In this document: in pieces, positions 2-64,000 of the stretch
Layout: each line of letters opens with the position of its first letter
Position numbering within the stretch: the first letter of the stretch is position 1
Assembly: GCA_963675665.1 (NCBI GenBank)
Contig: OY776510.1
Coordinates: 3,456,001-3,520,000 of the forward strand
Direction of reading: 5' to 3'
Origin: Spirochaetia bacterium
GTDB lineage: Bacteria; Spirochaetota; Spirochaetia; UBA9216
DNA: 64,000 bases
Notes under the pieces: generated by a model
The model's database searches: none
Told to the model about the DNA's origin: nothing
The model's input: the letters and a program-made list of their open reading frames with translations, nothing else
Position numbers and translations under genes: made by a program

Positions 2-1027
2 CTCGGCACAGGAATGGTTATAGATCCGGAAGCTCTTTTTAACGAGCTTGCAACAATTGAGAAACAGGGAATTAACTGGGAAAACAGAATATACATTTCC
101 GACAGGGCGCATCTTGTTCTTCCGCGATACCGCGAAGAAGACATAGAACTTGATAAAAATCGATCCAATCCAATCGGTACCACAGGACGCGGCATTGGAG
201 TTACATATGCGCATAAGGCTCATCGCGACGGAATAAGGGTAGGCGACCTTTACAATGAAAAACTGTATGCCGGCCTATCCGGCGACGACCGTGAATATCT
301 GGATCAGTACAAAGACAGAATGAAGGATATGGTTCTGGATCTATGTACTTTCATGGCTGAAAACAAAGGGAAACGAACGCTGTTTGAAGGAGCGCAGGGA
401 GTGCTTCTTGATCTTGATGTCGGAACTTATCCGTATGTCTCATCCGGATATTCCCAGGCTGCCGGGGCAGCGATGGGCGGGGGCATAGGACCAAGAAATA
501 TCGACGGCGTTCTCGGAGTTTTCAAGGCATATTCTACAAGGGTTGGAAATGGTCCGTTTCCTTCCGAGTTTCAGGACAACAGGGACGGCCAGCTTGAGAA
601 TTATATACGGGAAACAGGCCGGGAATACGGTGTTACGACCGGAAGGCCCAGAAGATGCGGCTACCTTGATTTGCCCGCGCTTAAATATGCCTGCAGGGTA
701 AATTCCCTGGATTCTCTTGTTCTTACGCACCTCGATGTCTATGACGAAATAAGCGAACTGAAAGCGTGTATAGCCTATGAATGCGACGGCGAACTTGTTG
801 AAAATTTTCCAGCCGATATTTCAGTTCTTGAAAATTCGGTTCCGGTAACAAAATCTTTTAAAGGCTGGAATAAAAGCCTTAAAGATATAAGAAACTATGA
901 AGACCTTCCGGCAGAAGCCAAAGAATATATAAAATTTATAGAAGATTACACTGAAACCCCGGTTGATATTGTTTCGATCGGATACAGACGCGAAGAAACC
1001 ATCCTTCGAAAAGATTTCTGGAAATAG
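2..1027 (+). CDS. purA: Adenylosuccinate synthetase (5'-truncated by window edge)
   Basis: Motifs IGTTGRGIG, FEGAQG, GTYPYVSS, EYGVTTGRPRRCG; frame open to window start. Confidence 0.97.
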   Translation, partial: LGTGMVIDPEALFNELATIEKQGINWENRIYISDRAHLVLPRYREEDIELDKNRSNPIGTTGRGIGVTYAHKAHRDGIRVGDLYNEKLYAGLSGDDREYLDQYKDRMKDMVLDLCTFMAENKGKRTLFEGAQGVLLDLDVGTYPYVSSGYSQAAGAAMGGGIGPRNIDGVLGVFKAYSTRVGNGPFPSEFQDNRDGQLENYIRETGREYGVTTGRPRRCGYLDLPALKYACRVNSLDSLVLTHLDVYDEISELKACIAYECDGELVENFPADISVLENSVPVTKSFKGWNKSLKDIRNYEDLPAEAKEYIKFIEDYTETPVDIVSIGYRREETILRKDFWK

Positions 1028-1049
1028 ACAGTGCAGACAGGGAGCAGAA

Positions 1050-2597
1050 ATGGATAAAATCCTCGTATTTGATTTCGGAAGCCAGACGACCCAGCTCATA
1101 GCAAGAAGAATTCGTGATTTTGGTGTATATACCGACATCGTTACCGCAGAAACCGAATGTACTGAAGAGCTTCTAAAGGACGTCAAGGGGATTATTCTTT
1201 CAGGTTCGCCGTATTCGGTGTATGAGAAAGGCGCTCCGACGCCTCATCATTCCATATACGAAACAGGACTGCCTGCTTTAGGTATATGTTACGGTTTTCA
1301 GAGAATGACAGCGGATTTCGGCGGTGAGGTCAAGGCCCTTGAAAAAACAGAATACGGGCGTTCAAATATAAATTACACGATGGAGCTGCCGCTTTTTAAA
1401 GGAATTCCTGATGGTTTTACATCTTGGATGAGTCACGGCGACAGTATAAACAGGCTGGGCAACGGATTCTCCCTTGCTGCAGAATCACAGCATCATATTG
1501 CCTGCGCATACAATTCAGAGAAAAATCTGTACGGTATACAGTTTCATCCCGAAGTAACGCATTGTGAGCACGGAAATGACATACTCAAAAATTTTGCAAT
1601 TGAAATTTGCGGGGCTGAAACAGGCTGGGATATGGCTGCCTATCTGAAACAGGAAAGCGAAGCTGTAAGAAAACAGGCCGACGGTCGTGATGTCCTTCTG
1701 CTTATTTCGGGCGGGGTTGATTCCACTGTTGTCGGCGGACTTCTTCTTAAATCGATTGAGCCTTCCAGGGTGCATCTAATGTACATAGACACCGGCCTTA
1801 TGCGCAAAAACGAATCTATAGAAGTTGAGACGGGTTTAAAAAAACTCGGAGCAGAGAATCTCTATTTAATTGATGCCTCGGAACGTTTTCTTGCCGCACT
1901 GAAGGGCATTAGCGAACCGGAAAAAAAGCGGGAAATAATAGGTGACCTTTTTATAAAAGTACAGGAAGACGAGATAAAAAAACGTCTCAAAGGCGATTAC
2001 ATGCTTGCCCAGGGCACGTTGTATACCGATCTTATCGAATCAGGCAAGGGCGTAGGGAAAAAAGCGCAGGTTATAAAATCACACCACAACGTGCGTTCGC
2101 CGCTTGTAGAGGCAAAACGAGATAAAGGATTGATTATTGAACCTTTGGGAAAACTTTACAAAGATGAAGTCCGCGAACTAGGACGCAGAATAGGGATAAG
2201 CGATGAAATTATCAGGCGCCACCCGTTCCCGGGGCCGGGGCTTGCCGTCCGGATTCTCGGAGACATAACCGATGAAAAATGCGAAATACTCCGTGAAGCA
2301 GACTGGATTTTCATCAACGAGCTAAAATCCCGCGGTCTTTACGACAAAATCTGGCAGGCGTTCTGTGTTCTGCTTCCGATACGATCAGTCGGTGTCGCCG
2401 GTGATCTGCGGGAATACGGATATGTTCTTGCCCTAAGGGCAATTACATCAAGTGACGGAATGACAGCCGATGTTTATCCGTTTGAGACCAGGGACATACT
2501 CGAGATATCATCGCTGATAACGAATTCTGTCCGCGGAATCGGAAGGGTTGTATATGACGTTTCTTCAAAACCGCCGGCAACCATCGAATGGGAGTAA
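1050..2597 (+). CDS. guaA: GMP synthase (glutamine-hydrolysing)
   Basis: DFGSQ, GICYG, QFHPEV, SGGVDS, KSHHNV, KPPATIEWE; start at MDKIL after GGAG. Confidence 0.97.
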   Translation: MDKILVFDFGSQTTQLIARRIRDFGVYTDIVTAETECTEELLKDVKGIILSGSPYSVYEKGAPTPHHSIYETGLPALGICYGFQRMTADFGGEVKALEKTEYGRSNINYTMELPLFKGIPDGFTSWMSHGDSINRLGNGFSLAAESQHHIACAYNSEKNLYGIQFHPEVTHCEHGNDILKNFAIEICGAETGWDMAAYLKQESEAVRKQADGRDVLLLISGGVDSTVVGGLLLKSIEPSRVHLMYIDTGLMRKNESIEVETGLKKLGAENLYLIDASERFLAALKGISEPEKKREIIGDLFIKVQEDEIKKRLKGDYMLAQGTLYTDLIESGKGVGKKAQVIKSHHNVRSPLVEAKRDKGLIIEPLGKLYKDEVRELGRRIGISDEIIRRHPFPGPGLAVRILGDITDEKCEILREADWIFINELKSRGLYDKIWQAFCVLLPIRSVGVAGDLREYGYVLALRAITSSDGMTADVYPFETRDILEISSLITNSVRGIGRVVYDVSSKPPATIEWE

Positions 2598-2601
2598 ATA
2601 T

Positions 2602-3261
2602 TCAGCTTAATAAAAGATCTGCAAGTTCGTGAACACCGGTGAAATAGTAATCACAGTGTTCACGCATATGGGCTTCTATCTCGGGAATGCTGTGTCCCCA
2701 GCCTGCGCCAGCAATACTGATCCCTGATTTTTTTGCCATTTCAAGGCCGGGTTTAAGATCATCAACCAGTAGAATCTCTTCTGTTGCCAGATTATATTTG
2801 CTTTTAATTTGTTCAACCGGCCATACAGAAGGTTTTCTTTTTTCAGGATCATAATCCCATCCGAAGATAATATCCGGGTGTACCCCGGATCCGTTAACTT
2901 TATAATGACGGCTTATAACATCGGCCTCGGAGTGGGATACAACAGCAACAATGCCGTTTTTTCTTTGAAATTCCGATATCAGTTCAGTGATGCCTGAAAA
3001 AAAATTGGGATTGGAGGTTTCATTAAATTCACGCCAGATTTTATATTCCTGCTGAATTTCATCCTCAGTGAATTTAAGTTCTCCTGTGAAAAATTCCATA
3101 ACGCCCGGATCGAAGTTTTTTCTGAACCAGGTGTCAAGGCTGACTGGTTCGCTGTCGGGGCGCATTTGTCTGATTGTTTCAACATGTGCCGGATAGTGAA
3201 TTTCTGCAGTGCTGTTTACGCTTGTATCGTCGTGATCCAGAATAAGACATTTAAACTTCAT
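2602..3261 (-). CDS. HAD-family hydrolase/phosphatase
   Basis: Motif I LDHDDT, KP motif III, VDD motif IV. Confidence 0.85.
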   Translation of the reverse strand: MKFKCLILDHDDTSVNSTAEIHYPAHVETIRQMRPDSEPVSLDTWFRKNFDPGVMEFFTGELKFTEDEIQQEYKIWREFNETSNPNFFSGITELISEFQRKNGIVAVVSHSEADVISRHYKVNGSGVHPDIIFGWDYDPEKRKPSVWPVEQIKSKYNLATEEILLVDDLKPGLEMAKKSGISIAGAGWGHSIPEIEAHMREHCDYYFTGVHELADLLLS

Positions 3262-3312
3262 AGCGTCTGTTTTAACATACTATTTGAAGTAAAATCAATA
3301 AGTTGTTATATT

Positions 3313-3888
3313 ATGGCAATGATTATCAGGTCGTTATGTGTTTTCTGCGGGTCAAGCTTTGGTACAGAGACGGTTTACGGGGAGAAAACAAGGGAATTCG
3401 GAAAATATCTGGCTGAAAGAAAGATAACCTTGATATACGGAGGCGGTGCTGCAGGCCTGATGGGCGTTCTTGCTGAGGCTGTACTTGATAACGGGGGCAG
3501 CGTGATTGGGATTATACCCGAAATGATTTATAAAAAGGTAGAACATCTGCCCCTAACTGAAACAATTATTACCGAAGACATGCATTCGAGAAAGAGAATG
3601 ATGTATGACAAATCAGACGCCTTTACAGCGCTTCCCGGCGGCATCGGAACCATTGAGGAAATAAGCGAGATTTATACATGGCAGCAGCTGGGTTATCACC
3701 GAAAAGCCGTGTCCTTGTATAATATAAACAATTTTTATTACAAATTTGCTGAATTCCTCGACAGCGCATGTGATATGGGCTTTATAAAAGAAATTCACCG
3801 AAACCGGCTTATTATTGAGCAGGATGCAGAAAAGCTGATTGAGAAAATCGAGAATTACAGTGAAGAAACAGTTGATAAATGGAGTTGA
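3313..3888 (+). CDS. LOG-family nucleotide phosphoribohydrolase (start may be ATG 3319)
   Basis: CVFCGS, YGGG..GLMG, PGGIGTIEE. Confidence 0.9.
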   Translation: MAMIIRSLCVFCGSSFGTETVYGEKTREFGKYLAERKITLIYGGGAAGLMGVLAEAVLDNGGSVIGIIPEMIYKKVEHLPLTETIITEDMHSRKRMMYDKSDAFTALPGGIGTIEEISEIYTWQQLGYHRKAVSLYNINNFYYKFAEFLDSACDMGFIKEIHRNRLIIEQDAEKLIEKIENYSEETVDKWS

Positions 3889-3898
3889 GTAAAATCAT

Positions 3899-4780
3899 AT
3901 GGATAACATGACTATTTTCCTGCTGGAAAAAGGACGGTACAGAGGGGCAATACTGGATGCAACCGTTATGGTGCAGAAAATGAGAGATTCACACAATACA
4001 GGCATACTGGAAACTTTTGCTCTCGGCGAGACCTATATTGCAGCAGGTCTTCTTACTACCATGCTGAAAGGAAATGACCGACTAGGAATTGTTTTTGAAT
4101 GCGGAGGCCCGATAAAGGGGATAAATGTAGAGGTTACAGCTGCAGGTCATGTTCGGGGGTTTCTTAAAAACAATCCGTTTCCGCTTGAAAAAATTCCGGA
4201 CAGTATGGATTTGTCAATGTTGTTCGGACCCGGATTTTTGTCAGTTATAAAATACCCGGAAGACAGCAAACAGCCTTTTAGCGGGCAGGTAATGATTCAA
4301 TACGGCAGCATAGCAAAAGATCTTGCTTATTATTATACAACTTCTGAAAACCTGCCGACTGCTTTTAATCTTAGTGTCAAATTTAACCGGGACGGCAGCC
4401 TGCTGGGCGCCGGAGGAGTTTTTATACAGAAAATGCCGGATGAAGAGTCTGCTGAGGATAATTCTGAAGCGGAAAGAATCCAGGATGCGCTGGTCGGAAT
4501 GACTTCAATAGGTTTAAGTCTTTCTGATGGTAAAACACTTCAGGAAATCATCAGCAATTCCTTCGGTGATTTTTTTCCGAATGTAATCGGCACGCGGAAT
4601 ATTGAATTTAAATGCAGCTGTAATCGTGAATTGTTCAGTAATTATCTTAACGGTCTTAAGGAAGAAGATAAAAAAGAAATATTTGAAAACGGACCGTACC
4701 CGGTTACTACAGTTTGCCATAACTGTAATACCTCTTATGAATTCAACAAGCATGAACTGAAGAAAATTTTTAATTACTGA
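3899..4780 (+). CDS. hslO: Hsp33 redox-regulated chaperone
   Basis: GPIKG, AGGVFIQKMP, C-terminal CSC...CHNC zinc centre. Confidence 0.9.
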   Translation: MDNMTIFLLEKGRYRGAILDATVMVQKMRDSHNTGILETFALGETYIAAGLLTTMLKGNDRLGIVFECGGPIKGINVEVTAAGHVRGFLKNNPFPLEKIPDSMDLSMLFGPGFLSVIKYPEDSKQPFSGQVMIQYGSIAKDLAYYYTTSENLPTAFNLSVKFNRDGSLLGAGGVFIQKMPDEESAEDNSEAERIQDALVGMTSIGLSLSDGKTLQEIISNSFGDFFPNVIGTRNIEFKCSCNRELFSNYLNGLKEEDKKEIFENGPYPVTTVCHNCNTSYEFNKHELKKIFNY

Positions 4781-4785
4781 AAAAA

Positions 4786-4817
4786 GGGAGTAAACCTTTA
4801 ACTTGTGGGTTACTCCC
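4786..4817. terminator. Probable bidirectional terminator hairpin
   Basis: gggagtaa...ttactccc inverted repeat between convergent genes. Confidence 0.55.
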
Positions 4818-4826
4818 CGTAATTAT

Positions 4827-5162
4827 TTACTTTTCGGTTTCGTTTTCGGAAGCATTGATCTGTTTTTTTAGTGAATTCAGTCTATTTTCAAGGTAATCTG
4901 CCTCTTCCCGAAGCATTTGATTATATTCTTCGTCTGTAACAGCGCCGGCATTTACACCGTAACCGGGATGAAAACCCTGTCTGAAGCCGCCTCTTAAAAA
5001 TCCTCTTCCTGCAAAACCTGCACCTGCCCCGAATCCGCCGCCCCTGCGTCCGAATCCGCTCCTGTTATACGAGCCCGGCATATTATTACCATTACAATAG
5101 CCGGCGCCCCTGCCTGTTCTTGGTCCCATTCCGTTCGGTCCCGTTCCGTTTCCCATTGGCAT
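4827..5162 (-). CDS. DUF5320-like Gly/Arg-rich protein with C-terminal coiled coil
   Basis: MPxGNGTGPxGMGPRTGRGAGYC N-terminus, RG-rich middle, LREEADYLENRL coil. Confidence 0.85.
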   Translation of the reverse strand: MPMGNGTGPNGMGPRTGRGAGYCNGNNMPGSYNRSGFGRRGGGFGAGAGFAGRGFLRGGFRQGFHPGYGVNAGAVTDEEYNQMLREEADYLENRLNSLKKQINASENETEK

Positions 5163-5227
5163 ATGATACCTCCATGTGTATCTGTGAGGCTGATAATCGA
5201 TTTTTGGATACAGCCTCTGTTCCGTTA

Positions 5228-5566
5228 TTAAAAAGCTGTCAGCTTTCCTTCCCTATACGAGTCATAAGCTTCTTTCAAGCTCATATTCTGTGCACCTGTA
5301 AAAATTTTTAAATTTGCTTTCTGCAAAACAGCAGCGGCATTTCCGCCTGGCCCGTTTCCGGTAATTAGAACATCAGGTTCAAGATCAAAAAGTTTTTTGG
5401 CTGTCTGAGGTCCGGCGCCGTGGGCCGCATTCTGGATGTCAAGATTGTTAACCGTTTTTATTTCTTCGCTGTCTTCATCATACATGAAAAGAAAATCGGC
5501 TCTTCCGAACCTCGGGTCTATTTCGGCATCCCAGTTTTCGCCTTTTGCAGTTAATACAATTTTCAT
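5228..5566 (-). CDS. NifB/NifX-family Fe-Mo cluster-binding domain protein
   Basis: DPRFGRA, HGAG, ITGNGPG motifs. Confidence 0.88.
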   Translation of the reverse strand: MKIVLTAKGENWDAEIDPRFGRADFLFMYDEDSEEIKTVNNLDIQNAAHGAGPQTAKKLFDLEPDVLITGNGPGGNAAAVLQKANLKIFTGAQNMSLKEAYDSYREGKLTAF

Positions 5567-6453
5567 TATTTCTCCTTCGCTGATACATCTTTGACAGTTT
5601 TATCCCATGCATCATATATCAGCTTTTTAATTTCGCTGTTGTTATATTCAGCTGCCGTTTTGCCGGCAGTTATAGCTTTTGTAAAATCTTCATTGTACGG
5701 TATAAGTTCAATGATGCTGACTTTCTCTTTTGCGGCGTATTTTTTCAGTTCATCAGTAAGCTGCAAATTAAGATCAAATTTATTGATTATAAGACCCGCG
5801 CGTATTTTAAACTTTTTTATGAGTTCATGAACCCTTTTAAGATCATGTACCCCTGATTTGGTCGGTTCTGTAACCAGAAGAACGTAATCAGCTCCGGTAA
5901 GTGAGGATACTACTGGACAGCCGATACCGGGAGAACCGTCGATTATAATCATTTCAATTCCAAGTTTATCAGCCGCAGCTCTGGCATTCTTTTTTACTTT
6001 TGCAACAAGTTTGCCGGAATTGTCCGCACCGGGTCTTAATCTGGCGTGAATCATTACGGCCCCGGTTTTTATAGTCGACTCGAAAATATCGCCTACCAGG
6101 GCATCTTTCATAGATATTGCCTGCTCAGGGCATATCCGGGCGCAATATCCGCAGCCTTCGCAGTTCATTCGGTCTATCGAGAACACCTCGTTATCATTGT
6201 TAACCGCACTGAATCTGCAAATATCACCGCATTTCCCGCAGGAAATACATTTTCCGTTATCTATTTCTGCAACTAAACCGCTGTAAAAATTTTCCGATTT
6301 ATTATAGTCTGGTTCAAGCATAAGATGCATGTCGTCGGCGTCGACATCACAATCGCCTACAACAAGATTTTTACTACCTATAACCGCAAACGACGAGGTA
6401 ATTGAAGTTTTACCGGTTCCGCCTTTTCCTGAAATTACAACAACTTCCTTCAT
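5566..6453 (-). CDS. MinD/CobQ-like P-loop ATPase with inserted 2x[4Fe-4S] domain
   Basis: SGKGGTGKT, CxxCxxCxxxC twice, DGSPGIGCP, VTEPT. Confidence 0.9.
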   Translation of the reverse strand: MKEVVVISGKGGTGKTSITSSFAVIGSKNLVVGDCDVDADDMHLMLEPDYNKSENFYSGLVAEIDNGKCISCGKCGDICRFSAVNNDNEVFSIDRMNCEGCGYCARICPEQAISMKDALVGDIFESTIKTGAVMIHARLRPGADNSGKLVAKVKKNARAAADKLGIEMIIIDGSPGIGCPVVSSLTGADYVLLVTEPTKSGVHDLKRVHELIKKFKIRAGLIINKFDLNLQLTDELKKYAAKEKVSIIELIPYNEDFTKAITAGKTAAEYNNSEIKKLIYDAWDKTVKDVSAKEK

Positions 6454-7334
6454 GAATTACGGTTCTCCTGATAGTTTTTGAGATAGTCCAGTATTTTTTT
6501 CAATTCAAAACTGAACGCCGGAATAAATTCATGTATAATTTTGCCCTGTGAATAGATTTCCGCAACCTCGCGCATATTAGGTAATTTTGAAATAATGTCT
6601 ATTCCGTTTTCAAAACAGTATTTTTCTACTTCGTTGTTGCCAATCCCGTACCTGTTTATAACAACTGCAAAATTCCTTCCAATTTCCCTGACGGTATTAA
6701 CGGCTAATTTAAGATCATGCAATCCGAATGGTGTTGGCTCGGTTACAAGGATTATAAAATCGCTGTTTTTGGCAACTTCAATAACCGGGCATGATGTACC
6801 CGGGGGAGAATCCATAATTAACAGCAGGTTTTCATCATTGACAGCGTATTCTTTTTCGATAAAATCAATGCTTTGTGAAATAAGAGGAACGGCCTGTTCC
6901 TGTCCTATATCAAGTCTGCTTTCAATAAATGTAAATTTTTCAGCATCCTGAACTTTTAATTCACCCATTCGTATTTTTTTCATGGGAAGGGCGCCTTCAG
7001 GGCATAATTCGGAACATGCATAACAGCTGTGACATAATTCAGGCAAAATCATTATACTTTTGCCTATTTTTAATACGCTTCCAAAATTGCAGACTTCATC
7101 ACAAAGACCGCAAGAAGAGCATCTGTCTTTTTCCCATTCAGGAACAGATTTAAATTTTTCTTCAAATTTTACAGTTTTGCCTTTTATAAACAATCCTGAA
7201 TTTGGTTCTTCCACATCAAGGTCAGCAAGAACTATTTTTGAATACTTGTTTGTCGTAGATATATAATCGGCGAGGTTAACTGATAATGTTGTTTTACCGG
7301 TTCCGCCTTTTCCGCTTGCAACAGCAACCTTCAT
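6450..7334 (-). CDS. MinD/CobQ-like P-loop ATPase with inserted 2x[4Fe-4S] domain (paralog)
   Basis: MKVAVASGKGGTGKT, DLDVEEPN, two Cys4 motifs, PPGTSCP, VTEPTPFGLHDL. Confidence 0.9.
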   Translation of the reverse strand: MKVAVASGKGGTGKTTLSVNLADYISTTNKYSKIVLADLDVEEPNSGLFIKGKTVKFEEKFKSVPEWEKDRCSSCGLCDEVCNFGSVLKIGKSIMILPELCHSCYACSELCPEGALPMKKIRMGELKVQDAEKFTFIESRLDIGQEQAVPLISQSIDFIEKEYAVNDENLLLIMDSPPGTSCPVIEVAKNSDFIILVTEPTPFGLHDLKLAVNTVREIGRNFAVVINRYGIGNNEVEKYCFENGIDIISKLPNMREVAEIYSQGKIIHEFIPAFSFELKKILDYLKNYQENRNS

Positions 7335-7786
7335 TACCTTCGGCCTCCGTGATACCGGTTGCAGCATCTGCCGTGACCATAACCGCCGGCAACGTCTATA
7401 AGATTTTTGGATCCGCATGCCGGACATTCTGTGTAAATCTTGTTGAAATCAGTTCTGAACATATGCTCGCAACTATTGCATTTGATAATATTTCCACGAA
7501 AATGGATATTTCCGCCGTCGATTTTCAGTTCGGCTCCGTCAATTATAAACTCAGCTACTTTACGCCTTGCTTTTTCAATCAGGCGTGTGAAAGTTGATCT
7601 GGAAATTTCCATCATCCGGGCCGCTTCGGCATGATCCAGGCCTGAATAGTCGGCAAGCCGAACAGCTTCAAACTCGTCAAGACTTAAAGTAATTGTCTTA
7701 AGATTGGTTCTTGCCAAACCGGTCGGTTTGAATGAATTAAAAAGAGGAGGTGAATTAACAATTCTTTCCTTTTCAGGTCTGGGCAT
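7334..7786 (-). CDS. DUF134 HTH DNA-binding protein with C-terminal zinc ribbon
   Basis: MPRP, LDEFEAVRLAD, MEISRSTF, CxxC...CPACGS. Confidence 0.88.
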   Translation of the reverse strand: MPRPEKERIVNSPPLFNSFKPTGLARTNLKTITLSLDEFEAVRLADYSGLDHAEAARMMEISRSTFTRLIEKARRKVAEFIIDGAELKIDGGNIHFRGNIIKCNSCEHMFRTDFNKIYTECPACGSKNLIDVAGGYGHGRCCNRYHGGRR

Positions 7787-55200: not shown

Positions 55201-56265
55201 ATGAATATAAAAATAACTTTAAAAAATGATGATTTAATTGAACTCACCTGTCCATATAATACAGAATTAATATCTGTAGTTAAAAAAATACCGGGAAGAA
55301 GGTGGCATCCGGACAGGAAGCTTTGGACATATCCTAATAAAGATAAAAATACCCAATACCTGCTTGAATATTTATATAAAACAGGCTCTTCTTATTACGA
55401 CAAACAGAAAAATCTGCAAAAGAACACTAATATAATTACACCTCTTGAAAAAACTGTAAGATATTTGAGACTGAAAGAATACAGCCCCAAAACAATCTAC
55501 ACCTATAAAAAACATATAAACTGGTTTTTCCGGAGAACCGGTTTGGAGCCGAAGGATGTCCGTACCGAAGATATAATTTTATATCTTGAAAAAATCAAAA
55601 ATGTTGCCGGATGCTCCAGAACTTATGCTGTTCAATGCATAAGCGCTCTGAAATGTTTTTACAGCCGGGGATTTGATTCGTGGTTCAATCCGGCTGACAA
55701 TATTCCGCTGCCTAAGAAAGATCATAAGTTTCCGGATATTCTTTCAAGAAAAGAAATCTCGGATATACTGGAAATAACCGCTAATATTAAACACAAGTTT
55801 TTAATATTATTGATCTATTCCGCCGGCCTGAGGGTAAGCGAAGCTGTCAATTTAAAAATAAACGATCTGGATTTTGACAGAAAAATGATTCATATCAGAT
55901 CAGGAAAAGGTAAAAAAGACAGGTATGTAATGTTATCGGAAAAAGCTGTAAAACTATATTTAGATTACAATAAGCAGGTAATGTTACAAAACTGGCTCTT
56001 CCCAGGTCAGGATTATAACTCTCATTTAAGCATACGATCAGCACAATCAGTATTTATCAGAGCAACTGAAAAAACTGAAATACAAAAAAAAGTCAGCATA
56101 CATTCATTACGTCATGCATTTGCTACACATCTACTTGAAGACGGTGTAGATTTAAGATACATACAGGAGCTTCTGGGGCATAAAAGCAGTAAAACAACAG
56201 AAATATATACCCATGTAACAAAAGTAAGTATAAACCGCCTGAAAAGCCCTATAGACAGATGGTAA
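55201..56265 (+). CDS. Tyrosine recombinase heading the cassette array; HARP-like N-terminus, SAM-like domain, no IntI-specific insertion
   Basis: GLRVSE, GKGKKDR, HSLRH, LLGH, TEIYTH catalytic set intact; PYNTELISVVKKIPGRRWHPDRKLW N-terminus. Confidence 0.9.
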   Translation: MNIKITLKNDDLIELTCPYNTELISVVKKIPGRRWHPDRKLWTYPNKDKNTQYLLEYLYKTGSSYYDKQKNLQKNTNIITPLEKTVRYLRLKEYSPKTIYTYKKHINWFFRRTGLEPKDVRTEDIILYLEKIKNVAGCSRTYAVQCISALKCFYSRGFDSWFNPADNIPLPKKDHKFPDILSRKEISDILEITANIKHKFLILLIYSAGLRVSEAVNLKINDLDFDRKMIHIRSGKGKKDRYVMLSEKAVKLYLDYNKQVMLQNWLFPGQDYNSHLSIRSAQSVFIRATEKTEIQKKVSIHSLRHAFATHLLEDGVDLRYIQELLGHKSSKTTEIYTHVTKVSINRLKSPIDRW

Positions 56266-61001: not shown

Positions 61002-61079
61002 AAAATGTTCCCGCTAAGAGGAAGACGCCCGGACCTCCGGCCGACGGGCTAAAAGAGAGTTTAAGATTAAGGAATCAAG

Positions 61080-62013: not shown

Positions 62014-62105
62014 GAAATGCCCCGCTAAGAGGAGAACGCCCGGACCTCCGGCCGACGGGCTAAACTGAATAGGAAATTAATAATAAATTAAAATATGGAG
62101 TTAGT

Positions 62106-62954: not shown

Positions 62955-63034
62955 TGAAATATTATAGATTTGAAAACTTTGGTAGCCAGTCCTTGACTCC
63001 GTCGCACGGACTGGTTTAAGAGCGGGGACACTTC

Positions 63035-63342
63035 AGCTAACAAGGGAATATAAGCAGCGCCCATTCGGGCTTGGCCTTCGGCACATTTTTATTTTTCTGA
63101 ACATAGGCTTTATCATCGGCATTTAACACATGAAATGCAGTAGTCAACACCTTTGACACGGTTCTGGCGGAGACATTCGCTGATCGCTCATTCCAGAACC
63201 GCGCCAACCCTCGAAGACTCGGGACGGTTTCGCTACTGATTTCGTCGTTAAATGCACGGGATTTTTCAGTTTCGGGAAAATGATGGGTGTGATAGAATCA
63301 ATGAGAAAAATAAAAACGTCTTATATTCCCGGGGCGTTATGC
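63035..63342 (+). repeat. attC-like site 5, unusually long (308 bp)
   Basis: AGCTAAC-aa-gggaatataag...cttatattccc-ggggc-GTTATGC; inner pairing acatttttatttttct / agaaaaataaaaacgt. Confidence 0.75.
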
Positions 63343-63457
63343 GACATTCTTGGAGGAAGAAGATAGAAACATTGTTTGGGATGATTTTGATAGTTTTTAG
63401 CATTTTACTCATTAAAAATTATTTTATTTCATATGGAAGGGCTATAAATAAATTCCG

Positions 63458-63466
63458 TGATATAAT
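63458..63466 (+). promoter_or_regulatory. Extended -10 promoter candidate inside cassette 6
   Basis: TG-A-TATAAT about 110 bp upstream of the Rhs-core ORF. Confidence 0.4.
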
Positions 63467-63576
63467 GTTATTTACAGTTTTAAATGCTGTAATTGAATTC
63501 TCAAGCAAGATCAACCAACTTGTTTTTAGGAACTTTACGCAGAAATTTAAGATTGAATTAAAAATAAAGGACGAAC

Positions 63577-64000
63577 ATGAATTCTACAGGCCAATATTAC
63601 TACAATGCCAGATGGTATGACCTAAATCTGGGTAGGTTTACCACAGAAGACCCGATAAGCGACGGCCTAAACTGGTACGCTTACGCTAATAATAATCCGC
63701 TGAGGTTTGTTGATCCGACCGGGTTAATAGATGTTGAATCTGATATAGTTGAAACGGAAACATACGTCGATGTTGATACTGATTCTCTCATGACTGGTGA
63801 TCCTATGGATATCTTTGATGATCCAGAAGTTGCAAAAGCTGATACTTTAGCTCAATTAGAAGATGTAGTAGATGAAACTGTAGAAATGATTTCCTTTACT
63901 ACCACTTTGGGTGGACTTTTGCCAGATGAAGAAGTTTCAACCACATTATTTTTTATTGGTGTAGGGACCGACCTTTATTCTACCCTTGTCTCTGAGGATA
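63577..64000 (+). CDS. Cassette 6: orphan Rhs repeat-associated core plus variable C-terminal domain (3'-truncated by window edge), not in ORF track
   Basis: MNSTGQYYYNARWYDLNLGRFTTEDPISDGLNWYAYANNNPLRFVDPTGL-IDVESD...; AAAGGA upstream; no stop before 64000. Confidence 0.88.
   Translation, partial: MNSTGQYYYNARWYDLNLGRFTTEDPISDGLNWYAYANNNPLRFVDPTGLIDVESDIVETETYVDVDTDSLMTGDPMDIFDDPEVAKADTLAQLEDVVDETVEMISFTTTLGGLLPDEEVSTTLFFIGVGTDLYSTLVSED

Follow-up and report, generated by a model that had tools for sequence, protein, structure and literature searches.

Introduction

Orphan rhs-CT/rhsI modules are reportedly the subject of work by Jackson 2009, Poole 2011 and Koskiniemi 2014. Among integron cassettes, toxin-antitoxin pairs that carry promoters of their own are known. 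A hallmark of polymorphic toxin loci is the solo toxin cassette with its paired immunity gene (Zhang et al., 2012; PMC3482391), and in the part of that article available to us the word 'integron' has 0 occurrences. Spirochaetes have chromosomal integrons whose attC sites form a type of their own (Ghaly et al., 2021; PMC8352920). In Vibrio cholerae, effector-immunity modules of the type VI secretion system are exchanged and older immunity genes accumulate, a situation that has been likened to integron arrays; the available portion of that study reports no evidence for an integrase inserting these modules (Kirchberger et al., 2017; PMC5361080). Here we describe a locus in a 64,000-nucleotide (nt) stretch of the Spirochaetia bacterium contig OY776510.1, referred to as the window, in which an integron-type gene cassette probably carries an orphan Rhs toxin module. 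Polymorphic-toxin cassettes, which recombine homologously at the core, and integron cassettes, which recombine at attC sites, have been treated as unrelated. One unit here appears to be both.

The window covers positions 3,456,001-3,520,000 of a 5.15-Mb genome, assembled as a single contig with a completeness of 96.4%. The cassette of interest is cut at the window end, 64000. For parts past this end we use window-equivalent coordinates, defined as the position in locus L002 plus 63000. An earlier analysis made from the letters of the window, the sequence-only reading, had proposed that an open reading frame (ORF) starting at 63577 is an orphan Rhs core end with a toxin tip, and that the array around it may act as a mobile reservoir of such tips and immunity genes. 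The relatives used for comparison are G002, of the same genus; G008 and G010, of another genus in the same family; and G009, of a different genus in the same family.

Results

The Rhs module lies in an attC-bounded cassette

The array contains 13 attC-like sites between 56688 and 73950, all on the + strand. They follow one plan: xxTAAC, a spacer of 2-3 nt, an L'' arm of 10-11 nt, a variable centre, an L' arm and (C/G)GGAAC-GTTAxxx. The site immediately upstream of the module, s5, is unusually long (~310 nt) and contains a nested inverted repeat at 63121-63253. In its fold, L'' GGGAATATAAG pairs with L' CTTATATTCCC. The closing site, s6, is found past the window end, and its R'' is the GCATAAC that had been predicted from the window.

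Both sites were recovered by a model that had not been trained on them. The attC profile was built from 10 array sites, with s5, s6 and s10 left out, and was scanned over 145,882 bases. It matches s5 (63034-63342) at 26.2 bits (E 2.3e-7) and s6 (64760-64901) at 37.4 bits (E 7.2e-11), each over the full model length, and gave no further match in the 64-kb window or the seven other loci. The covariance model is free of base pairs, and is in effect a model of primary sequence, because MAFFT set two attC sub-types out of register. Both sites are also recovered by nhmmer. Recovery of s6 by the two methods places the ORF inside the array, as had been proposed, and not in flanking DNA.

The cassette can be delimited by its recombination boxes. 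R' of s5, GTTATGC, and the R'' that belongs to the cassette itself, GCATAAC, are reverse complements at 7/7 positions. Complementarity of 7/7 is found in 5 of the 11 cognate pairs in the array, versus 8 of 157 non-cognate pairings. This complementarity sets the cassette unit at 63337-64895, which on the sequence evidence is a genuine attC-bounded gene cassette. Downstream of s6, the same site family continues to 73950 with seven intact sites (s7 and s9-s14) and with s8, which is interrupted by an insertion sequence.

In a genome-wide nhmmer search, the attC type of the array was found at the 13 array sites and in one cluster of 4, and nowhere else in the genome. The cluster of 4 is located at genome positions 3,906,580-3,919,106 on the minus strand. 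A copy of the other attC type of this genome, described below, lies near it at 3,922,820-3,922,960.

Joints were surveyed in the assembled contigs of 4 runs from one study. They lie at repeated attC sequence and have short sides, and a clean excision junction was not seen in these contigs. One low-depth joint, from 63044 to 64771, has a shorter side of 27 nt and falls off the R' crossover; it may originate from a repeat or from a relative.

The ORF at 63577 begins with the end of an Rhs core

Within the window the stub-toxin ORF is 141 residues long and open at its 3' end. Its stop codon, expected past 64000, is located at 64210-64212 and gives a protein of 211 residues. An in-frame TAA 4 codons 5' of the ATG closes the frame, and AAGGA at 63567-63571 is spaced 5 nt from the start. 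Residues 3-50 match positions 27-76 of the 76 in the NCBIfam model TIGR03696 (Rhs_assc_core) at 60.7 bits (cut-off 32.5). When the whole genome was scanned with this model, the stub scored 65.7 bits over positions 25-76. All 20 of 20 PDB sequence matches align residues 2-58 of the ORF with the extreme ends of Rhs, TcC or teneurin cores, for example with residues 640-690 of the 690-residue YenC2 construct. A Pfam search of the 211-residue protein returned no family. The TIGR03696 match and AAGGA bear out the assignment made in the sequence-only reading, an Rhs core end plus tip with its own ribosome-binding site directly after s5.

The stub contains two DP..GL motifs, D25-L31 and D46-L50, and the ORF includes the end of the RHS-associated core with its PxxxxDPxGL boundary. 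Other parts of an Rhs protein are absent. The β-cocoon of many RHS/YD repeats is missing, the ORF beginning 6 residues before the last core repeat, and no N-terminal trafficking or secretion domain was found in the ORF, where only 6 residues precede the core stub. For the putative autoproteolytic release of the C-terminal domain both motifs are there, but the stub retains only about half of a plug that measures ~95 residues in PMC8636562. Codon 16 (63622-63624) gives the sequence WYDLNLGRF, at a position where all six compared sequences, stubs and full-length genes together, encode the proline of YDP.

A TGnTATAAT motif reported upstream of the ORF is indeed present, as TGATATAAT, although its support as a promoter is poor. 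The motif is seen 5 times in the 20-kb locus versus 1.94 expected, and 5 or more copies occur in 12 of 200 shuffles; it is not enriched. A sigma-70 scan listed no promoter at 63458-63466. For these two reasons we treat the motif as weak evidence.

The stub derives from rhs genes that the host lacks

The sequence-only reading had staked its proposal on a cognate full-length rhs gene in this genome, and none is present by TIGR03696, PF05593 or tblastn. In the whole-genome scan, TIGR03696 matches the stub alone and no other Rhs core. PF05593, for RHS repeats, has 0 matches with 21 scored candidates, and tblastn of the tip against the host genome gives no match other than the tip. As an Rhs shell gene is absent from the host, tip replacement cannot occur in this genome.

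Full-length genes are found in relatives. Of 61 genomes surveyed for Rhs cores (60 relatives and the host), 23 have TIGR03696 matches. G008 and G010 contain two open frames each of Rhs type, 3346-3401 residues long. The 3349-residue ORF of G008 (L054) contains RHS_repeat (218.8 bits), Ig-like domains and an F5/8 type C domain. The core homology expected in the host was found elsewhere, in these genes of ~3350 residues: the 141 nt encoding residues 4-50 are identical at 118-124 positions (84-88%) to the full-length rhs genes, two in G008 and two in G010. At the protein level, the stub and the full-length proteins share 87-91% identity over the last 47 core residues, and the differing codons are 8-12 synonymous versus 4-6 non-synonymous. 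When the whole cassette was compared with all loci by blastn, homology extended from nt 9-10 of the ORF to DPTGL, and the only other shared piece was the hairpin described below. These limits indicate that the stub is the 3' core end of the family's rhs genes with a new start. Each of the four full-length genes has one immunity-like ORF downstream.

The tail is paired with a candidate immunity gene

The tail after the stub is 161 residues long and consists, in order, of an acidic linker, helical hydrophobic segments and a conserved end, TTDNMSDLSDFLGGTIDW. Its earlier description as acidic and then hydrophobic holds for the complete protein, which has 39 D+E versus 5 K+R, is acidic in the region after DPTGL and contains a single strongly hydrophobic stretch, residues 147-176. 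The tail (residues 51-211) was scored against 1.84 billion protein representatives. The matches were the query itself and one other protein, P0002, which has 192 residues, comes from a Spirochaetales metagenome-assembled genome and is 39% identical over the whole tail. In its locus (G009), P0002 is located directly 3' of a frameshifted YD-repeat ORF of ~300 residues. Next comes a membrane ORF with 33% identity over 89 residues (E 1e-12) to the 100-residue ORF 3' of the window's tail. The G009 pair therefore indicates that the toxin and immunity candidates are inherited together, on core pieces of different length.

The immunity-like ORF anticipated past 64000 is this 100-residue ORF. Its ATG shares one base with the TAA of the toxin (TAATG), and this overlap suggests translational coupling of the two candidates. 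The immunity candidate has no family match, and a word-based homologue search found no relative of it. Pfam at E values up to 5 gave nothing meaningful for the toxin, P0002 or the immunity candidate. A profile search of the PDB matched the stub only and left the tail unmatched. An AlphaFold2 model of the 211-residue protein was discarded as unusable (mean predicted local distance difference test score, pLDDT, 35.9, with a 2-sequence alignment). Leads from the protein Atlas were sub-threshold and were not used; these were unnamed clusters (0.89) and colicin-like pore formers (0.80) for the tail, and a score of 0.88 for the immunity ORF. We infer that the toxin acts on the membrane, given that its helices are hydrophobic, that the immunity candidate is membrane-embedded and that no enzyme motif is present.

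The 3' part of the cassette also contains a G+C-rich hairpin (-38 kcal/mol, z -5.3, 0/200 shuffles as good). Its 29-nt core occurs once in the host and once in G008, with 0 copies in G002, G009 and G010. In G008 the core is likewise found 3' of a stub and membrane-ORF pair.

A conserved small ORF fills the cassette leader

The cassette leader is filled by a second small ORF, orfU, whose last 44 nt overlap the start of the stub. Four homologues were found, with 70-76% identity and zero indels. They lie on 3 contigs, and the same contigs hold stubs with MN(S/P)TGQ starts (P0004 and P0011, P0007, and P0005). The C-terminus of each homologue is encoded by a stub start read in the alternate frame. 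The homology begins exactly at V-M, encoded by GTT ATG of the R' box at the attC crossover, and the sequences differ upstream of it. Two of the homologues have an N-terminal extension, MLIGKTLLWQRFNFTYLP, that matches the translated 3' half of the window's attC s2, MLIDKTLLWRRFNFTYSR. The chance of 79 codons staying open at the 28% G+C of the leader is ~5e-4. The frame is open in four relatives, which favours a real gene. No Pfam family matches orfU, and a survey of 400 other genomes in the class sample found no copy of it.

Table 1. Features of the Rhs cassette and the head of its array. Coordinates past 64000 are window-equivalent.
Feature	Position	Strand	Remarks
Tyrosine recombinase, array head	55201-56265	+	354 residues; XerA-like; co-directional with the cassettes
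attC s5, upstream boundary	63033-63342	+	R'' AGCTAAC 63035-63041; R' GTTATGC 63336-63342
Rhs cassette unit	63337-64895	+	1559 nt; from the crossover of s5 (between G and TT) to the G of s6 R'; cut at 64000 in the window
orfU	63339-63620	+	93 residues; fills the cassette leader; one hydrophobic helix; ATG within the R' box
Extended -10-like TGATATAAT	63458-63466	+	Exact match; 111 nt before the toxin ATG
Rhs core stub	63577-63726	+	Met + 49 residues; last core repeat; both DP..GL motifs; end DPTGL; from TIGR03696 and PDB
C-terminal toxin candidate	63727-64212	+	Residues 51-211 + stop; cut at 64000 in the window
Immunity candidate	64212-64514	+	100 residues; hydrophobic 32-85; 23% G+C
G+C-rich hairpin	64640-64701 (conserved core 64659-64687)	+	From the fold and the 29-nt core in G008
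Closing attC s6	64758-64902	+	R'' GCATAAC 64761-64767; L'' CGGTTAAGCG; L' CGCTTAACC; R' GTTATCT 64895-64901

Stubs with one start and many tails

Residues 1-52 of the protein are shared by 47 short proteins (116-370 residues), the query included, among 49 candidates. Of the 47, 18 have the last-core-repeat motif in their first 15 residues, and 8 combine an M-x-x-x-G-Q start with the core motif at residue 7; the N-termini of these 8 are 84-94% identical to that of the window's protein. The start M-x-x-x-G-Q-(Y/N/C)-Y recurs in at least 7 other short proteins, whose tails are largely unrelated; 4 of them start exactly with MNSTGQ (P0004-P0007). The contigs of these 4 measure 46.9 kb to 3.39 Mb, which rules out fragments at contig edges. 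The N-termini of ten stubs are 80-94% identical to that of the window's protein, and only 1 of 45 pairs shows tail similarity. A glutamine precedes YYYN in the 8 M-x-x-x-G-Q stubs and in the stub of G008, where full-length genes have leucine. We infer that such cassettes form a family in which the 5' end of ~390 nt, orfU plus the stub, is constant and the toxin/immunity 3' ends are interchangeable.

These comparisons also bear on the proposed tip reservoir. The array has one toxin tip among at least 13 cassettes, and therefore it is not a reservoir of tips. A pool does seem to exist across genomes, in which the same start and leader are joined to different tips, and the reservoir, if there is one, would be this cassette pool.

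Related stubs were found in other contexts. In G002 (L024, C238), genes for a phage baseplate hub, baseplate wedge and tail fibre (665-5450) are followed at a distance of 1.5 kb by an ORF for a 215-residue stub protein (6922-7569), which indicates that stub modules also ride prophage-like DNA. The pattern G-Q-x-Y-(Y/F)-N-A-R-W-Y-D was found in the genome collection in the G008 stub only. This stub is followed by a small membrane ORF. An attC array around it was considered and dropped, as the model found no site there and the IntI of G008 is on another contig. Just upstream of the G008 stub (L026), a 92-nt direct repeat with 93% identity (6025-6116 and 6596-6687) flanks a small lipoprotein-like ORF. 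The stub pattern was also found in 10 metagenome loci, in 4 of which (L047-L050, with a GTG start) only four codons are open upstream. Four others (L045, L046, L052 and L053) have a stop directly after G-Q and before YYFNARWYD.

Recombinase and neighbouring cassettes

The tyrosine recombinase at the array head scores 220 bits with NF040815 (XerA/integron integrase), which equals the cut-off. It scores 190.8 bits with TIGR02249 (cut-off 265), leaving profile positions 170-234 unmatched; it is thus without the IntI-specific insertion. Orthologues in G008 (L056, C9:468500-488499) and G010 (L057, C4:1137800-1157799) have 22 and 18 co-oriented attC-profile matches within 20 kb, respectively. The pairing of this recombinase with an array is therefore conserved across two genera, and it may represent a conserved integron-like platform with a non-canonical integrase. 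The arrays of these two genomes also contain similar long sites of ~320 nt.

A canonical IntI (392 bits) is encoded 1 Mb away at 4,525,299-4,526,318, beside an array of ~106 kb (4,417,932-4,524,311) with a second attC type. The nested repeats in s5 (63121-63253) and s8 (66802-66947), 133-146 nt long, are inverted copies of this second type. In blast, the two nested copies gave 79 rows at 70-93% identity across the ~106 kb beside the canonical IntI.

The neighbouring cassettes encode AraC/Cass2, Mrr-like, GmrSD/HNH, GNAT, PIN/Phd and MazEF proteins, which are typical integron cargo. The element that interrupts s8 is of the IS3 family (66715-68140, window-equivalent), with an ALIL frameshift pseudoknot (106 bits) and transposase ORFs on the minus strand. 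Three ORFs of 517, 114 and 99 residues at 74109-76341 (window-equivalent) are, judging by the ORF pattern, what we take to be an IS66-like element. A different G+C-rich hairpin element, with a core of ~25-44 nt containing GCCCGGACCTCCGGCCGACGGGCTAA, occurs at 61010-61053, 62021-62064 and 65794-65830, with 12 more copies in the genome. It sits just after attC sites, where several cassettes begin, in both integron arrays. An Rfam search of L002 at gathering thresholds gave no name for this element.

Discussion

We consider it probable, with some reservation, that the unit is an integron-type cassette carrying an orphan Rhs toxin module, that its use to the host is immunity and/or stability of the cassette, and that its displacement arm serves elsewhere. 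The module would consist of orfU, the 211-residue stub toxin, a translationally coupled membrane immunity gene, the hairpin and its own attC, and the cassette would move by site-specific recombination. The host presumably cannot deliver the module by an Rhs shell. Selection would then see the immunity protein, which would protect against neighbours delivering the toxin. An alternative or additional role in the host would be stabilisation of the cassette in the manner of a toxin-antitoxin pair. The start codon and ribosome-binding site of the stub would ensure that the overlapping immunity gene is translated. In a genome with a related rhs gene, the 141-nt stub could act as the 5' homology arm that grafts the tip and immunity gene, as in classical C-terminal displacement.

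Several findings weigh against this reading. There is no full-length rhs gene in the host, and the recombination role is argued from relatives whose arm differs by 12-16%. Downstream of the four full-length rhs genes no orphan arrays were found within ~3 kb, and classical displacement is undocumented in this family. The cassette is the single toxin cassette found in the genome, and the other cassettes of its array carry no toxin tips. Toxin activity has neither fold nor family support, and the promoter-like motif has no statistical support. The leucine at position 16 of the stub may reflect relaxed constraint. The cassette status of the sister stubs is judged from their protein N-termini. Finally, a mere recombination substrate needs neither a conserved orfU nor a conserved start codon.

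The main alternative, which we hold to be unlikely, is a self-contained stub-toxin system in which orfU and the stub still work and are no remnants. The toxin could, for instance, be exported or released by orfU and processed or masked by the stub, and the cassette would encode a complete small weapon, similar to a bacteriocin, in which the Rhs shell has no part. A functional stub would account for a start position and first residues (MNSTGQ) that are kept across unrelated tails, although coupling to the immunity gene and shared cassette ancestry explain the conserved start as well. The glutamine that replaces leucine before YYYN is at a position that would be buried in the shell, and both DP..GL motifs of the Rhs aspartyl-protease plug are retained; half of a shell-embedded plug of ~95 residues is nevertheless unlikely to fold or cleave, judging from the available part of the plug's description (Jurenas 2021; PMC8636562). 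That orfU is open and indel-free at 70-76% identity beside 4 stubs speaks for a role of its own, whereas it has no family and was not found in the 400 other genomes of the class sample. No signal peptide and no secretion partner were identified. Stub-only ORFs in other lineages (4 of the 10 metagenome loci, open for 4 codons upstream), the other vehicle for stubs in the prophage baseplate neighbourhood of G002, and the intact 211-residue frame kept by a host with no rhs gene also agree with this alternative. If taken further, it would make the 93-residue protein and the 47-residue stub a minimal export-release device with swappable ends, spread by integrons and prophages among spirochaetes. 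We give such autonomous small mobile weapons a low probability as well.

A decaying passenger is less probable still, and we regard it as rather improbable. In this case a fragment from the rhs 3' end of a relative would have been captured, would be unused and would be heading for loss. The host has no rhs gene, proline is replaced by leucine at position 16 in the YDP motif of the stub, and the only relative of the tail adjoins a frameshifted fragment in G009. The cassette is also A+T-rich, with a G+C content of 0.338 versus 0.433 for the genome. However, three ORFs are intact in DNA of 28-38% G+C, where stop codons are frequent. The toxin and immunity candidates have diverged from the G009 pair to 39% and 33% identity, respectively, with frames kept. 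The spacing of the ribosome-binding site and the TAATG coupling are preserved, and the same architecture is found in several genomes. The remaining explanation, in which the array stops at 63342 and leaves the ORF in flanking DNA, is refuted by the closing attC at 64758-64902, by eight further downstream sites (s8 among them, interrupted) and by the 7/7 match of R' and R''.

The reading we prefer, a cassette-borne orphan Rhs module, has consequences beyond this locus. It would provide a route by which tips and immunity genes travel between genomes that share no rhs gene. They could be stockpiled and later grafted onto a resident rhs gene. The family with the constant 390-nt head could be mined for new antibacterial toxin/immunity pairs, and it allows one to ask experimentally whether the 47-residue Rhs remnant is itself functional.

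Comparison with known systems

In the full-text literature, with ~1.7 million PubMed Central articles and subscription papers outside the scope, no Rhs or other polymorphic-toxin tip in an attC-bounded cassette was found. The closest systems each share part of the design. Like orphan rhs-CT/rhsI modules and solo toxin cassettes, the module has the toxin candidate before the immunity candidate and a core piece that ends at DPxGL and is homologous in DNA to full-length genes. Unlike them, it has no full-length gene beside it or in the genome. Its boundaries are attC sites, so that a site-specific recombinase is predicted to be able to move it. Its core piece is trimmed to the same 47 residues with its own ribosome-binding site and start in several genomes, and it is accompanied by a conserved small ORF.

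Like the cassettes of sedentary chromosomal integrons, the unit belongs to a co-directional array with complementary R'/R'' boxes, contains multiple ORFs and perhaps a promoter of its own, as toxin-antitoxin cassettes do, and has neighbours with typical cargo. It differs in that its own cargo is a polymorphic-toxin tip. The adjacent recombinase also differs, as it lacks the IntI insertion and is oriented with the cassettes, and the canonical IntI serves another attC type 1 Mb away. The type VI modules of V. cholerae are similar as toxin/immunity pairs that move between genomes, but the module described here lies inside attC sites. The full-length surface Rhs proteins of the family, such as that encoded by the 3349-residue ORF of G008, have the same core end and a variable tail after DPTGL, whereas the window's protein has no shell.

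As a full-length Rhs protein, the window's protein fails. Save for the absent parent gene, the cassette fits a solo toxin cassette, and save for the missing IntI-specific insertion in the adjacent recombinase, it fits an integron cassette.

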